18,808 bases of DNA from a virus (lineage: Duplodnaviria; Heunggongvirae; Uroviricota; Caudoviricetes), in IMG/VR virus record IMGVR_UViG_2531839477_000015, positions 1 to 18,808 of that record, one strand, 5' to 3'. Shown here one piece after another: positions 5,746-16,614 of the stretch (positions within the stretch are counted from its first letter, which is position 1; every line of letters begins with the position of its first letter). A model generated the notes under the pieces. It had not been told where the DNA came from and did no database searches. It was given only the letters and a program-made list of their open reading frames with translations. Position numbers and translations under genes: made by a program.

Positions 5746-6225
5746 TTAAATTGCGTGAATAGCGTGACGAGGGAATGGGAGAGTTACTGGTTCCTCGTCT
5801 GGGTAGATAGGTTTGTTATGTTTGTGCCACTCGACATGACATGACTTGCAGAGCCACATCACATCGGTTGGTTTGCTGTAGTCGCAGTGGTGCGCCTGTG
5901 GTTTACATTCTGATCCGCAGCACTCACATTGTGGTGGTCGGATTAGCTTACCGTCGCGCAAAAAATTACCCACAATGATGTGGGCTTTTCTTTTCCATGG
6001 GTTGCTCTGAATGAACCGCTTTTTGGCTGCGTTACACCGTTCTCTTCCGCGTTCCGATGATTGATATTCTCTCCTTGCTGATACTCGATGTGGCAATCCA
6101 GCGCGTTCTTTGTCGTATTCAGCCAGGCAAGCCCGGCAAGCGGCAGTTAATCCATCTCTGGATGCTCTTCTGATTTGAAAGTCCCTTTCTTCCTTCTGTT
6201 GATGGCATCTTGAGCAGACTTTCAT
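5746..6225 (-). CDS. HNH-family endonuclease with extra Cys pairs
   Basis: C-terminal CECCGSECKPQAHHCDYSKPTDVMWLCKSCHVEWH fits the HNH/zinc-finger pattern; ATG 6223-6225 with GGAG upstream. Confidence 0.6.
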   Translation of the reverse strand: MKVCSRCHQQKEERDFQIRRASRDGLTAACRACLAEYDKERAGLPHRVSARREYQSSERGRERCNAAKKRFIQSNPWKRKAHIIVGNFLRDGKLIRPPQCECCGSECKPQAHHCDYSKPTDVMWLCKSCHVEWHKHNKPIYPDEEPVTLPFPRHAIHAI

Positions 6226-12047: not shown

Positions 12048-12193
12048 TGACAAAACCACTCAGTCCTTACCAGGACAAAATTCACAAACACATACTACGT
12101 GATCGCTTCCTGTCCAGCTTCAAGCAGCCTGGTCGATTCCGGGCTGAGTTGGAAAAAGTGAAGCTGATGCAGAAGGAGAAAGGTCATGAGTAA
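12047..12193 (+). CDS. Small ORF (48 aa), translationally coupled
   Basis: Not in the track. ATG 12047 overlaps the upstream stop (TAATG) with GAGGAGG 5 nt upstream; translation [48 protein letters not shown]; 3' end overlaps the O-like start. Confidence 0.4.
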
Positions 12194-13046
12194 TCTTGCA
12201 ACCGTAACACATTTAAGGCCTTCACAACGGCCTGTGGAGCGTCGTGTGGCAGAAGTTGAAGATGGTTATACCCGTCTTGCAAATGCCCTGTATGAAGAGC
12301 TTATCGGCGCAGATTTAACGAAAAATCAGAGCAAGGTTGCCCACGCCATATGCCGTAAAACATACGGCTACGGTAAAAAGATGGATCGCATCTCTGATAG
12401 TCAGTTAGCTCAAATTACCAGGCTGCCAAGACAGAAGGTAAACAAGGCCAAGAATGAGCTTATCGCGATGAAGGTTATCCTTCGCGAAGGCCAGCAAATC
12501 GGGCCTAACAAGAACATCGAGGAATGGCAAATAGAAGGGTGTCACTACTCTGGTGATAATGTCACTGCATTGGTGACAAAAAGTGTCACCAAAACGGTGA
12601 CAGCGCTGTCACCAAAACAGGGACACACAAAAGAAACTATTACAAAAGAAAAAAGAAATAATAAAAACACTATGTCCGAAAGTGTTCGGACGGAGTGTGA
12701 AAAATCACATGACCGTCACGAAGAAACCGACAAGGCATTCGAGGAAATATTCTGGTGTGCAGGCATGCGGAAAGCCGGGAAGAAAAACGCAGCTTCGGCA
12801 TTCAGAACACAGTTCAGGGAATGGCGTAAAACTACCAGGGGTACGGCAAGCGAGTTTGCCACGATGCTGGCAGAAGACATCGCATGCAGGAATGGTAAGC
12901 AGTTCGGATTCGACAGGTTGTTACCATCGAGCTACCTGAACGGTCAACGCTGGAACGACGAGAAGCCAGAAACTATTCAACCACAATCCAAACCATCATC
13001 CGCAATCACCGTATCGAAAACTGGCTACGTGTTTTTCGACAGGTGA
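12186..13046 (+). CDS. Replication initiator, lambda O-like N-terminal domain with unrelated C-terminal domain
   Basis: N-terminal region [58 protein letters not shown]...GPNKNIEEW parallels lambda O; iterons inside the gene; C-terminal half not O-like. Confidence 0.85.
12551..12672. repeat. Putative ori: iteron cluster plus AT-rich tract inside the O-like gene
   Basis: Six alternating copies of GGTGACA/TGTCACC-type heptamers between 12551 and 12622 (tggtgataa, tgtcactgc, ttggtgacaaaaa, gtgtcaccaaaac, ggtgacagcgc, tgtcaccaaaac), followed by the A-rich tract 12628-12672. Confidence 0.6.
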
Positions 13047-13153
13047 ACCATGAAATCAAAAATCAAATCGCTACTGGTCGCTGGTTATAACCACGGCTGG
13101 TTAAGTATTTCGTTTGTCGATTTCTGGTTTAAAAATCTCAATCTGAGGGAATC

Positions 13154-13648
13154 ATGATGAGCCTTGAAGTTGGAGAATATATACCTGGTTATGAGGGTAA
13201 ATACTCTGTAACCAAAGACGGTCGTGTTTATTCACATTTAAGAGGCAGGTTTTTGAATCCATCTCCGGATAACAAGGGTTATCTAAGAGTCACTTTGTGT
13301 TCCGATGGGATTCAGAAGACGTTAAAAGTTCATCGTCTTGTAGCTCAATTATTTATCCCAAATCCGTATTGCAAGCCAGAAGTAAATCATATCAACGGCG
13401 ACAAATCGGATAACGCCATTTGGAACTTGGAATGGTGTACCTGCTCAGAGAATTTAAAACATGCTTTTAGCATCGGACTGAAAAGCGCAAAGGGAGTTTT
13501 TAATGGTAGGGCAAAACTATCTGAAACTGATGTGATTGATATCAGGAATTCTGTTGGTATGAAACTAAGCGAACTATCCACTAAATACGGAGTGAGTGAA
13601 ATGCAAATTTCCACAATCCGCAGAGGAAACGCATGGAGGCACCTTTGA
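13154..13648 (+). CDS. HNH homing-type endonuclease (NUMOD4-like N-terminus, HNH_3 core, C-terminal HTH)
   Basis: YIPGYEGKYSVTKDGRVYS...HRLVAQLFIPNP...VNHINGDKSDNAIWNLEWCTCSEN; by-eye AT-rich; sits between the O-like gene and the primase-helicase. Confidence 0.8.
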   Translation: MMSLEVGEYIPGYEGKYSVTKDGRVYSHLRGRFLNPSPDNKGYLRVTLCSDGIQKTLKVHRLVAQLFIPNPYCKPEVNHINGDKSDNAIWNLEWCTCSENLKHAFSIGLKSAKGVFNGRAKLSETDVIDIRNSVGMKLSELSTKYGVSEMQISTIRRGNAWRHL

Positions 13649-15525
13649 GTCCATCAGAACTTAGCGACCTGCTTTGGGCGCAGGTTGACAGGGTGGCTCC
13701 GCACCTGTTGCCAAACGGCAAGAAAGAGGGGCATGAGTGGGTTGCCGGTAACGTCAACGGTGACAAGGGAAACAGCCTTAAGGTCAACCTTAGCGGCAAG
13801 AAAAAATGGGCTGATTTCGCCGAGGGAGACGGCGGTGACATGCTTGATTTGTGGATGGCATGTCGTGGAATTAACCTGCATCAGGCTATGCAGGAAGCGA
13901 AAGCATTTCTCGGTATCAAGGATGACGATCACCATTTCGATGCCAAACGTGAGAAGAAATTCTCCAGACCTGATCGCAAGAAAATCGCCCGCTACGTTAC
14001 CAGGACAGAATCCCATCTTGAGTACCTGCAATCGCGTGGCATATCGCCAGAAGTCGTAAAGCGCTACGAGGTTGTCAGCGGCAAGGTGTGGAATGGAGAA
14101 CGAGAACTGGATGCTCTGGTGATTCCGTACAAACGCGATGGTGAGTTGTTGCAGGTCAAGCGAATCAGCACTGAGCGCTCGGACGGGAAGAAAGTCATTA
14201 TGGCAGAAGGTGATTGCGAACCTTGTCTGTTCGGATGGCAGGCTCTGGACGCTGGCGTGAGGGCGGTTGTACTTTGCGAAGGCGAAATTGATTGTATGAG
14301 CTATGCGCAATACGGCATCTCGGCGTTATCCGTGCCGTTTGGTGGCGGGAAAGGCGCTAAGCAACAGTGGATTGAGTTTGAGTATCACAACCTCGACAGG
14401 TTTGAGGAAATATTCATCTCGATGGACGTTGATGATGTTGGTCGTGAAGCCGCAAGGGAAATCGCAAGCCGACTCGGTGAACATCGTTGCCGTCTTGTTA
14501 CTCTGCCGTACAAGGACATCAACGAATGCCTGATGAACGGTGTTACCGAGGATGAAATCTGGCAGTACATCGGCACGGCATCCTACTTCGATCCTGAAGA
14601 ACTCTACAGCGCGCGAGAGTTTTACCAGGACACTATCAACGCTTTCTACGGCAAGCAGCAGTATCTGTTTAATCCACCGTGGGAATCTCTGGCAGATAAA
14701 TTCCAGTTCCGTGAGGCCGAGTTGACGCTGGTCAATGGTGTGAACGGTCACGGAAAAACGGAGGTTGTCGGGCATATGGCACTTGAGGCAATGCGTCAGG
14801 GGGTGAAGACGTGCATCGCGTCACTTGAGCTGAAGCCTGGTATTCTCCTTAAGCGCCTTACCCGTCAGGCAACGTGCTGCAAGATGCCGCCAGTGCTGGA
14901 AATTGACTCTGCATTTAAATTTTATGACGAAAGACTTTGGGTGTTTGGCCTGACCGGAACGGCGAAATCCGACAGGCTGATCGAAATATTCGACTACGCT
15001 CGCCGCCGATACGGGATCCAGTTATTCATCATCGACAGCCTGATGAAATGTGGCATAGGCGACGATGACTATAACGGGCAGAAGGCGTTTGTTGACTCGA
15101 TTTGCGACTTCAAAAACAAAACAAACTCCCACGTCATTCTCGTTACTCACTCGCGAAAAGGAGACAGCGAAGAAAAACCAACCGGGAAAATGGACGTAAA
15201 AGGCTCTGGAGCGATAACAGACCTGACAGACAACCTTTTCATCATCTGGCGTAACAAGGCTCGCGAGAGAGCGTTACAGAGAGTTCAGAGTGGTGAAAAG
15301 ATGTCAGAGAAGGACGAACAGCTACTGGCATCTCCGGCATCTGTTTTGATGCTTGAAAAACAACGTAACGGCGAAGGTTGGGAAGGTGGCGTCCCGTTGT
15401 TCCTTGACGAGCAATCGCACCAGTTCCTGCAACTTGAATCAGGATCGCCATATAGCTACATCGCCAATATGCCGAAATCGGAATATGACGAGGCGTGGCG
15501 ACAGGAAAACGTGACGGAGTATTAA
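13633..15525 (+). CDS. Bifunctional primase-helicase (Toprim primase + DnaB/SF4-like helicase)
   Basis: 630 aa; Toprim-like VVLCEGEIDCMS; Walker A LVNGVNGHGKTEV; Walker B-like LFIIDSLMK; occupies the lambda P position. Confidence 0.85.
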   Translation: MEAPLSPSELSDLLWAQVDRVAPHLLPNGKKEGHEWVAGNVNGDKGNSLKVNLSGKKKWADFAEGDGGDMLDLWMACRGINLHQAMQEAKAFLGIKDDDHHFDAKREKKFSRPDRKKIARYVTRTESHLEYLQSRGISPEVVKRYEVVSGKVWNGERELDALVIPYKRDGELLQVKRISTERSDGKKVIMAEGDCEPCLFGWQALDAGVRAVVLCEGEIDCMSYAQYGISALSVPFGGGKGAKQQWIEFEYHNLDRFEEIFISMDVDDVGREAAREIASRLGEHRCRLVTLPYKDINECLMNGVTEDEIWQYIGTASYFDPEELYSAREFYQDTINAFYGKQQYLFNPPWESLADKFQFREAELTLVNGVNGHGKTEVVGHMALEAMRQGVKTCIASLELKPGILLKRLTRQATCCKMPPVLEIDSAFKFYDERLWVFGLTGTAKSDRLIEIFDYARRRYGIQLFIIDSLMKCGIGDDDYNGQKAFVDSICDFKNKTNSHVILVTHSRKGDSEEKPTGKMDVKGSGAITDLTDNLFIIWRNKARERALQRVQSGEKMSEKDEQLLASPASVLMLEKQRNGEGWEGGVPLFLDEQSHQFLQLESGSPYSYIANMPKSEYDEAWRQENVTEY

Positions 15526-15602: not shown

Positions 15603-16019
15603 ATGAAAAAACTAACCTTTGAAATTCGATCTCCAGCACATCAGCAAAACGCTATTCACGCAGTACAGCAAATTCTTCCAGACCCAACCAAACCAATCGT
15701 AGTAACTATTCAGGAACGCAACCGCAGCATTCGGCAAAATGCACGCCTTCACGCGATGCTATCTGAAATAAGTAAGAAGGCTACATATCATGGAAAAGCA
15801 AGAAATATTGAGTTTTGGAAGGGGTTATTCGTTTCTGGTTGGCAGATTGCAACCAACCAGCACCCTGAGATTATATCAGGGTTAGAAGGTGAGCTAATAA
15901 ACATCAGAGAGAGTACGGCGACTCTATCTGTAAAAAAAATATCCGAAATAATGGACTACATAGAAGCATATTGTGCCATGAACTCAATTCATCTTAGCGA
16001 ATGGAGGAATTATGATTGA
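15603..16019 (+). CDS. ninB: NinB (Orf-family recombination mediator)
   Basis: MKKLTFEIRSPAHQQNAIHAVQQILPDPTKPIVVTIQERNRS matches the lambda NinB N-terminus as recalled; remainder is a diverged homologue; the track start at 15585 is TTG. Confidence 0.85.
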   Translation: MKKLTFEIRSPAHQQNAIHAVQQILPDPTKPIVVTIQERNRSIRQNARLHAMLSEISKKATYHGKARNIEFWKGLFVSGWQIATNQHPEIISGLEGELINIRESTATLSVKKISEIMDYIEAYCAMNSIHLSEWRNYD

Positions 16020-16614
16020 GGTTTGGGTAGATATCGAAGGAATTCCATTTTATCAGGTTAGCAATAAAGGAAATTTCAGGTCTATTACGAGGGAAATTAC
16101 AGTAACATCAACCAGACAGAGGCCATATAAGAAAATAATTAATGGCACTAGCGTAAAACCATTCAAGTGCAAGTCGACAGGATATCTTCAAATAAAGGTA
16201 TACGGTAAGAAATACAGCGCCCACAGGATAGTTGCGAAAGCATTCTGTACAGGGTTCTGTGATGGCTTGGTAGTTAATCACAAAAATGGGCAAAGAGATG
16301 ACAATAGGGCTGAAAACCTTGAATGGGTATCTCATTCTGAAAACTCAAAGCACGGATATAAACAAAATGGAAGAATACCTATATCGCTAGGTAAATTTAG
16401 TGGTGATCATCCTGCCAGTAAAGCTGTTATTTCTACTGACATGAAAACTGGGGAGGAGGTTTATTATGAAGCAGCTATGGATGCTGTCAGAGAAGGATTT
16501 GATAGTTCGTCAATTAGTCGTTGCTGTAATGGCGAAAGCTCATATCACAAAGGAAGATTCTGGCGATTTGCAAATGAAACAATGAAAGCGAGATGGGGAG
16601 ATCGGGCTGCATGA
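16012..16614 (+). CDS. HNH homing-type endonuclease inserted at the ninB 3' end
   Basis: NUMOD4-like GIPFYQVSNKGNFRS and HNH_3 HRIVAKAF...VNHKNGQRDDNRAENLEWVSHSEN; AT-rich by eye; C-terminal KARWGDRAA equals the lambda NinB C-terminus as recalled. Confidence 0.8.
   Translation: MIEVWVDIEGIPFYQVSNKGNFRSITREITVTSTRQRPYKKIINGTSVKPFKCKSTGYLQIKVYGKKYSAHRIVAKAFCTGFCDGLVVNHKNGQRDDNRAENLEWVSHSENSKHGYKQNGRIPISLGKFSGDHPASKAVISTDMKTGEEVYYEAAMDAVREGFDSSSISRCCNGESSYHKGRFWRFANETMKARWGDRAA

Follow-up and report, generated by a model that had tools for sequence, protein, structure and literature searches.

A gene for a small HNH endonuclease lies amid the replication genes of a lambdoid Escherichia coli prophage, and its position raises the question of whether it is a mobile element that invades the start of the primase-helicase gene, a factor that serves the phage, or a relic passed around by recombination. 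The stretch of DNA that was analyzed, referred to here as the window, is 18,808 nt long and comes from the early region of the prophage, the integration site of which adjoins ybhC. Its gene order runs through an integrase, ea-type genes, SSB and Erf, a repressor, CII, a lambda O-like initiator, the primase-helicase, NinB, Dam, and nin genes. Comparison with insert-free relatives indicates that the gene is very probably a free-standing element that encodes an active or recently active I-HmuI-type homing endonuclease and forms a selfish 491-bp insertion at the first codon of the primase-helicase.

Genomic Setting and Domain Structure of the Nuclease

The nuclease gene was originally predicted to sit between the initiator and the primase-helicase. 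Both neighbors are as described, but a conserved 35-aa open reading frame (ORF) had been overlooked (13050–13157, plus strand; translation MKSKIKSLLVAGYNHGWLSISFVDFWFKNLNLRES, equivalent to gp60 in the annotation of phage ES18). This small ORF, for which an NCBIfam search returned no family, lies directly 5′ of the primase-helicase in most related Enterobacterales loci (tblastn), where its stop codon usually overlaps the primase start. In the window, its TGA overlaps the ATG at 13154 in the sequence ATGA. Upstream of it is the initiator (12186–13046, plus strand; Pfam Phage_rep_O, E 1e-37), a neighbor that is outside the mobile unit. The primase-helicase (Toprim_2 and DnaB-like domains; Pfam, PHROG 239), which extends on the plus strand from 13633 or 13645 to 15525, directly follows the nuclease gene in every occupied locus and is the presumed target gene of the enzyme. 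The insert is AT-rich, with 40.1% GC (GC3 36%) compared to 51% for the primase and 46.7% for O, but it is not unique in this respect, as the 35-aa ORF (37%) and NinB (41%) have a similar composition.

The initiator gene itself contains a mosaic junction. In two related loci (L004 and L005) the O-like N-terminal part is replaced by that of an HTH_36-type initiator, while the nuclease gene and primase are unchanged. These initiators (L004 3117–3893 and L005 3096–3893) retain a C-terminal 127 aa that is 95% identical to the O-like protein, and the junction of the replication module is therefore placed inside the initiator gene. A module breakpoint at the insert was rejected, since the observed one is within the initiator. 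The earlier statement that the HNH genes of the window mark module boundaries thus applies to gene junctions and not to the breakpoint of the replication module.

The nuclease ORF (13154–13648, plus strand) begins with ATG, ends with TGA, and encodes 164 aa. Pfam identifies a NUMOD4 N-terminal DNA-binding domain (PF07463; 41.5 bits versus a cut-off of 23.4, E 1.6e-10) at aa 9–48 (13178–13297), which is formed by beta strands in the structural model, as well as an HNH_3 catalytic domain (PF13392; 37.2 bits versus a cut-off of 24.8, E 2.3e-9) at aa 58–101 (13325–13456). In addition, the protein matches PHROG 59, annotated "HNH endonuclease" (E 1e-56), and is named "NUMOD4 motif-containing HNH endonuclease" by PGAP; NCBIfam has no family for it, nor for the products of 16012–16614 and 5746–6225. 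A C-terminal helix-turn-helix (HTH) at aa 124–156 (13523–13621) yields sub-threshold matches only in Pfam (HTH_3, E 0.014; Sigma70_r4, E 0.026). An AlphaFold model based on 80 homologues (pLDDT 94.9) features three helices in this region (AF2; aa 124–132, 138–145, and 149–156), all with pLDDT above 90, and Foldseek aligns them in part with the HTH domains of SinR and ArdK. For the whole model, the top PDB match by Foldseek is the full length of I-HmuI (E 1.8e-9, TM 0.59), which is also the sole match in a PDB sequence search (1U3E; E 7e-14, 26% identity over aa 10–151). The combination of NUMOD4, HNH_3, the I-HmuI fold, and the HTH matches means that the protein had been described correctly as a NUMOD4/HNH_3-type nuclease with a C-terminal HTH. 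Judged by its sequence and predicted fold, it is an I-HmuI-like HNH endonuclease.

Residues H60, N78, H79, N91, and N100 are invariant in the alignment of the 80 homologues, and H79 and N100 align with the motif His and Asn of I-HmuI. In the HNH_3 core, of the beta-beta-alpha-metal type, the conserved His reportedly acts as the general base and the Asn residues as ligands (Shen et al., 2004). N78 is an Asn where I-HmuI features a metal-binding Asp; because this position is an invariant Asn throughout the subfamily, the substitution is probably normal. By analogy with its relatives, the 164-aa protein would be expected to nick a long asymmetric target in a site-specific manner.

Several other classes of nuclease-bearing element were considered. 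A group I intron-encoded ORF was rejected because no intron RNA family was matched (a search of 12800–14000 against Rfam, with E up to 1, found nothing) and because the 491-bp insert consists almost entirely of ORF and lies at a start codon, outside coding sequence. Pfam finds no Hint domain that would denote an intein, and the ORF lies between two other ORFs. Terminase-associated HNH proteins of the HK97 gp74 type are encoded next to cos and the terminase and feature a zinc-binding CxxC core, whereas this nuclease is encoded in the replication module, belongs to the HNH_3/NUMOD4 type, and has no CxxC pairs. A scan for a promoter or terminator belonging to the HNH gene found nothing above chance, which leaves an independent transcription unit unsupported. 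With neither an Rfam family nor such signals, the gene is thus a free-standing ORF in the early replication transcript, as had been proposed, and is transcribed with the early rightward replication operon.

Insertion Edges and the Primase-Helicase Start

Alignment with phage Sf101 defines a plus-strand insertion of 491 bp (13158–13648) relative to empty-site alleles, with ATGA at its left edge and TTGA at its right. The two sequences are identical through 13157, the end of ...GAGGGAATCATGA. In Sf101, this sequence places the TGA stop of the 35-aa ORF over the ATG of the primase-helicase, and in the window the same ATG (13154) starts the HNH gene instead. Homology resumes past the HNH stop, where the window reads ...CACCT TTG A/GT CCA TCA GAA CTT AGC and Sf101 reads ATG A/CG CCA AGT GAA CTT AGC (slash, right edge of the insertion). 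The comparison with insert-free relatives that had been suggested as a check thus yields an insertion with exact edges, and Sf101, mEp043, vB_EcoP-720R6, and SEN22 all carry the empty site. Since the insertion falls exactly after ATGA, the nuclease uses the ribosome-binding site (GAGGG, 13145–13149) and start codon (ATG, 13154–13156) that are native to the primase, as is evident from the Sf101 alignment, in which the primase starts at this ATG (13145–13156 in all, plus strand).

The primase is nevertheless supplied with a replacement initiation region within the insert (13633–13647, plus strand). The last codons of the nuclease (A-W-R-H-L) provide either an in-frame ATG or a GGAGG followed by a TTG or GTG start, so the primase is still made. 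Both the GGAGG (13635–13639) and the ATG (13633) fall inside the conserved A-W-R-H codons of the nuclease. The TTG at 13645 aligns with the native primase ATG and produces a 4-nt overlap (TTGA) with the HNH gene, while the in-frame ATG, 12 nt upstream of it, would produce an overlap of 16 nt. The 16-nt overlap that was first reported therefore applies only if translation starts at 13633; in each of the five complete E. coli genomes with the insert, PGAP selects the TTG, and the overlap is then 4 nt. Among the occupied copies, the primase start is TTG in E. coli and Enterobacter and GTG in Cronobacter and locus L021. The Pantoea orthologues end earlier, and a separate AAGGAGG and ATG serve the primase.

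One copy departs from this arrangement. In E. coli elppa4 (L003 13990–14010, NZ_CP083512) the left junction contains four extra bases, ATGA[CGCC]TGAGCC, with a stop just upstream, so that the nuclease gene has no ATG start. Its coding sequence is annotated in shortened form by PGAP, and this copy is probably decaying.

Occupied and Empty Sites, Diversity, and the Predicted Target

Insert-free phages match the region from initiator to primase in two pieces that skip about 491 bp, with flanks that are approximately 98–99% identical in Sf101, mEp043, and vB_EcoP-720R6 and 91.5% identical in SEN22. A search of 50,697 phage records found no copy of the gene (the best tblastn protein identity was 49%), so the comparison relied on prophages. 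The exact 491 bp occur in five of 5426 complete E. coli genomes, in each case adjoining the primase, whereas the junction is uninterrupted, between flanks that are about 99% identical, in about 287 (roughly 287 of the 292 that have it). All 26 species-representative loci with a homologous primase in other Enterobacterales are likewise empty. A gene present at the same position in all relatives would speak against mobility; empty sites are instead the rule, and the reading of this gene as mobile is upheld.

Where the gene does occur, its slot is constant. The exact 164-aa protein is encoded on 221 contigs, and across ten different prophage backgrounds, two of them with the other initiator type, it always lies between the 35-aa ORF and the primase. 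The same slot is occupied by orthologues with 81% (Cronobacter), 75%, 73% (Enterobacter), and 62% (Pantoea) identity. The dN/dS between orthologues is 0.09–0.17, so the protein has been kept functional, and the window copy as well as four of the five copies in complete genomes are intact with all motif residues present.

Diversity within the insert is far lower than in the adjacent DNA. Among 12 occupied E. coli alleles, the 499 nt from 13158 to 13656 contain no variable site, while the primase of the same alleles features 21–39 variable sites per 400–500 nt, the first at 13662. Because ten of these 12 alleles had been selected for an identical protein, a choice that lowers the apparent non-synonymous diversity, the comparison was extended to two other samples. 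In the first, six additional IMG/VR alleles have one variable site in the insert and 6–13 differences each in about 700 nt of flank, nearly all in the 5′ part of the primase. The sample that corrects for the bias comprises the five complete E. coli genomes, which were found by DNA similarity alone. These have one variable site in the 499-nt insert compared to 46 in 1869 nt of primase, and a nucleotide diversity (pi) of 0.0008 and 0.0125, respectively, which is about 15-fold lower in the insert. If the insert varied at the flank rate, it would have 27 variable sites (Poisson P of one or fewer, 4e-11). This contrast points to a single sequence that has swept recently.

The flanks of this uniform insert are shared with alleles that lack it. 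When the full 1878 nt of the primase gene are compared, 18 occupied alleles share 42 polymorphic sites with 7 empty ones, and the only fixed differences between the two groups are the start codon and 13654–13656 (TCA versus AGT), with 13649–13650 nearly fixed. All four combinations of insert state and base are found at a site only 6 nt from insert-linked DNA. The left flank has no fixed difference, and polymorphism common to occupied and empty alleles begins 46 nt from the insert. A near-invariant insert flanked by polymorphisms that are also present in empty alleles therefore represents one gene copy on many recombined backgrounds, and this pattern in the alleles is exactly what homing predicts.

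The putative target is split by the insert, and the insert-linked junction at 13649–13656 (plus strand) is GTCCATCA, compared to CGCCAAGT in the common empty alleles, although the insert-type bases recur in rare alleles that are insert-free. The empty junction of the Sf101/mEp043 type, between the 35-aa ORF and the primase, reads …GGGAATCATGACGCCAAGTGAAC…, while a rare insert-free junction, typified by locus L086, reads …ATGAGTCCATCAGAAC…. Because AGT CCA TCA is also found in the latter, it may be a minimal co-converted flank that marks the allele family in which the gene first landed. For the same reason, the idea that AGT CCA TCA is a change conferring immunity was downgraded. In L086 itself (IMG/VR 2713897197_000003), ATG AGT CCA TCA directly follows the 35-aa ORF and there is no nuclease gene. 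In L079, L080, L082, L085 (7940–8093), and L087, the insert-type primase start follows about 140 nt of unrelated filler and the end of the 35-aa ORF is replaced. The filler of the L085 type was considered as a deletion remnant of the nuclease gene and discarded, as no similarity was found. All six loci are possible ancestral or loss alleles; insert-free alleles with AGT CCA TCA are essentially absent from complete E. coli genomes.

The nearest polymorphisms in common with empty alleles are 6 nt to the right of insert-linked DNA and 46 nt to its left, which makes a cut no more than about 15 nt away from the insertion point probable. As free-standing enzymes of phage T4 often cut far from their own genes, this predicted position is a best guess.

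Probable Homing, Rival Readings, and Related Elements

A homing cycle would begin when an insert-carrying phage meets an insert-free phage or a resident prophage. As in other members of the family, the enzyme would act as a monomer, binding along an asymmetric target, roughly 25 bp long, and nicking one strand. The likely site is the uninterrupted junction of the 35-aa ORF and primase in insert-free relatives, around ...GAGGGAATCATGACGCCAAGTGAAC.... The nick would be converted to a break, and repair by recombination, through phage Erf and SSB (both are encoded in the window) or host RecA, could then use the insert-carrying copy as template. Such repair would copy the nuclease gene and a few flanking bases into the insert-free allele. 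We infer cleavage, target site, and biased inheritance alike by analogy with characterized enzymes. It must also be considered that ordinary homologous recombination among prophages could move a 0.5-kb cassette without any endonuclease.

The gene could alternatively be a passive nuclease relic, reshuffled only by general recombination between prophages. Recombination is indeed rampant among these prophages, as seen from the 103 variable sites and shared haplotypes in the primase comparison, and decay does occur, given the elppa4 copy with its four extra bases and missing ATG start. However, the intact copies with their full set of motif residues, the low dN/dS across genera, and the sweep suggested by the reduced diversity of the insert do not fit a relic, and this explanation is considered improbable. 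A related argument concerns who benefits from the nuclease. It might be a weapon or exclusion factor of the phage that damages the primase-helicase region of insert-free lambdoid competitors or residents, with its own spread as a by-product. In favor of this, the gene is expressed from the early replication operon, and the protein is subject to strong purifying selection. Moreover, several prophages with this junction often coexist in one E. coli genome (in up to four places per genome), and HNH intron enzymes of Bacillus phages are known to cause marker exclusion (PMC2988022). Yet fewer than 2% of prophages with this primase carry the gene, which is unexpected for a generally useful trait, and the precise presence or absence of the insert, its near-zero diversity, and the minimal co-converted flanks are what homing predicts. 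Exclusion as the main role is thus unlikely, if somewhat less so than a relic, and the two functions are not exclusive.

The location between two replication genes, with which the HNH gene is co-transcribed, could also suggest an accessory nickase that assists the initiator and primase-helicase, either at the phage origin or during a switch to rolling-circle replication. This has very little to recommend it, since nearly all phages that share this initiator, origin, and primase lack the gene (the viable Sf101, mEp043, and ES18 among them), and a change of initiator type leaves it in place beside the primase. Furthermore, the protein belongs to a family of homing enzymes. A more speculative extension is that the insert is more than a passenger, in that it would both tie primase expression to its own presence, as a built-in anchor, and sabotage replication by nicking insert-free primase starts, as a weapon between temperate phages. 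The anchor follows from the layout of the junction: the insert takes over the ribosome-binding site and ATG of the primase and supplies a weaker TTG or GTG start, so only a base-perfect deletion would restore a working operon. This combined role is a doubtful proposition at present.

The closest characterized relatives are I-HmuI of Bacillus phage SPO1 (PDB 1U3E), I-HmuII, and I-BasI, which share the same domain order of NUMOD4, HNH_3 core, and C-terminal HTH. They are single-strand nickases that bring about homing and marker exclusion (PMC2988022). I-HmuI is encoded within a group I intron of a DNA polymerase gene, whereas the gene in the window is free-standing and occupies the start of a primase-helicase gene in a temperate enterobacterial phage. 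The two proteins share 26% identity, and the metal-binding Asp of I-HmuI is replaced by Asn in the window protein. Both nicking by HNH homing enzymes of phages and the "intronless homing" of free-standing genes are established (PMC2988022). With respect to its placement, the gene resembles mobA, mobE, and the seg genes of T4, which are likewise free-standing between essential phage genes and present or absent among close relatives. The free-standing nuclease genes of T4 are inherited with co-converted flanks, and MobA and MobE are HNH nickases (PMC2988022). The T4 enzymes usually cut hundreds to thousands of base pairs from their own genes, which forces long co-conversion tracts (PMC2988022). 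Unlike these, the window gene has shared polymorphisms 6 nt from insert-linked DNA, which points to a cut beside the insertion point and would make it more similar to intron-encoded enzymes than to the T4 seg genes. The window phage also differs from T4 in being temperate, so that resident prophages can be recipients.

This is an ordinary homing endonuclease gene of known type, and it leaves the understanding of such elements unchanged. Its value is as a precisely mapped natural example in temperate enterobacterial phages, as most of the detailed work concerns lytic T4-like and SPO1-like phages. Occupied and empty alleles are available, as are a decaying copy and alleles that are possibly ancestral, and the predicted target, the primase start junction of the Sf101/mEp043 type, belongs to a tractable E. 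coli system. The locus further illustrates how a homing endonuclease gene can be accommodated in a translationally coupled operon while the essential gene that follows is not silenced.

The same primase-helicase gene hosts another selfish nuclease element in Stx/O157 prophages, an intein with a LAGLIDADG endonuclease. It differs from the HNH insert in nuclease family and in site, as it lies in-frame in the helicase domain and is removed by protein splicing. The primase-helicase is about 340 aa longer in L056 (2649–5300, a prophage of E. coli O157:H7 WS4202) and in L002 (Stx2a phage Stx2_16002), where the intein-like insert matches Hom_end_hint and LAGLIDADG_3 at about aa 379–634, in the helicase domain.

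Phages such as ICP1 commonly carry nuclease genes beside essential or replisome genes and at exchange boundaries (Barth, Dunham and Seed, 2023, PMC10448857). That work deals with T5orf172 and AP2-linked HNH families in mostly lytic phages, and makes no mention of NUMOD4, HNH_3, or a primase (PMC10448857). In the window, three HNH nucleases had been counted within 19 kb. The gene discussed above and that at 16012–16614 (plus strand), a NUMOD4/HNH_3 gene between NinB and Dam, are confirmed by Pfam, while the gene at 5746–6225 (minus strand) is assigned through PHROG 2340 ("endonuclease") and a motif recognized by eye. This third gene, just downstream of SSB, is 99.4% identical to gene 26 (gp26) of Sf6, and its homologues are scattered through Vibrio, Staphylococcus, and Bacillus phages. 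The motif, CxxC..HH..CxxCHxxxH, is its sole HNH-specific basis: Pfam (up to E 5), NCBIfam, and the PDB sequence search gave no match, and neither a BLASTP comparison with an HNH protein named by PGAP nor an AlphaFold model from a single sequence (pLDDT 54) was informative. The gene at 16012–16614 is missing from Sf101, where NinB and Dam adjoin. Of the 5426 complete E. coli genomes, 77 have it; the window has no Sf101 alignment from 15729 to 16583, which spans the 3′ two-thirds of NinB and the HNH gene. Overall, these phages appear to have acquired nuclease genes repeatedly in their early replication and nin region. Other HNH_3 genes, some with a weak AP2 match, are found in L007 (7857–8375), L012 (6455–7066), L013 (6887–7414), L019 (6603–7151), and L005 (2452–2880), mostly between the primase and NinB or Dam, with the one in L005 just after CII.
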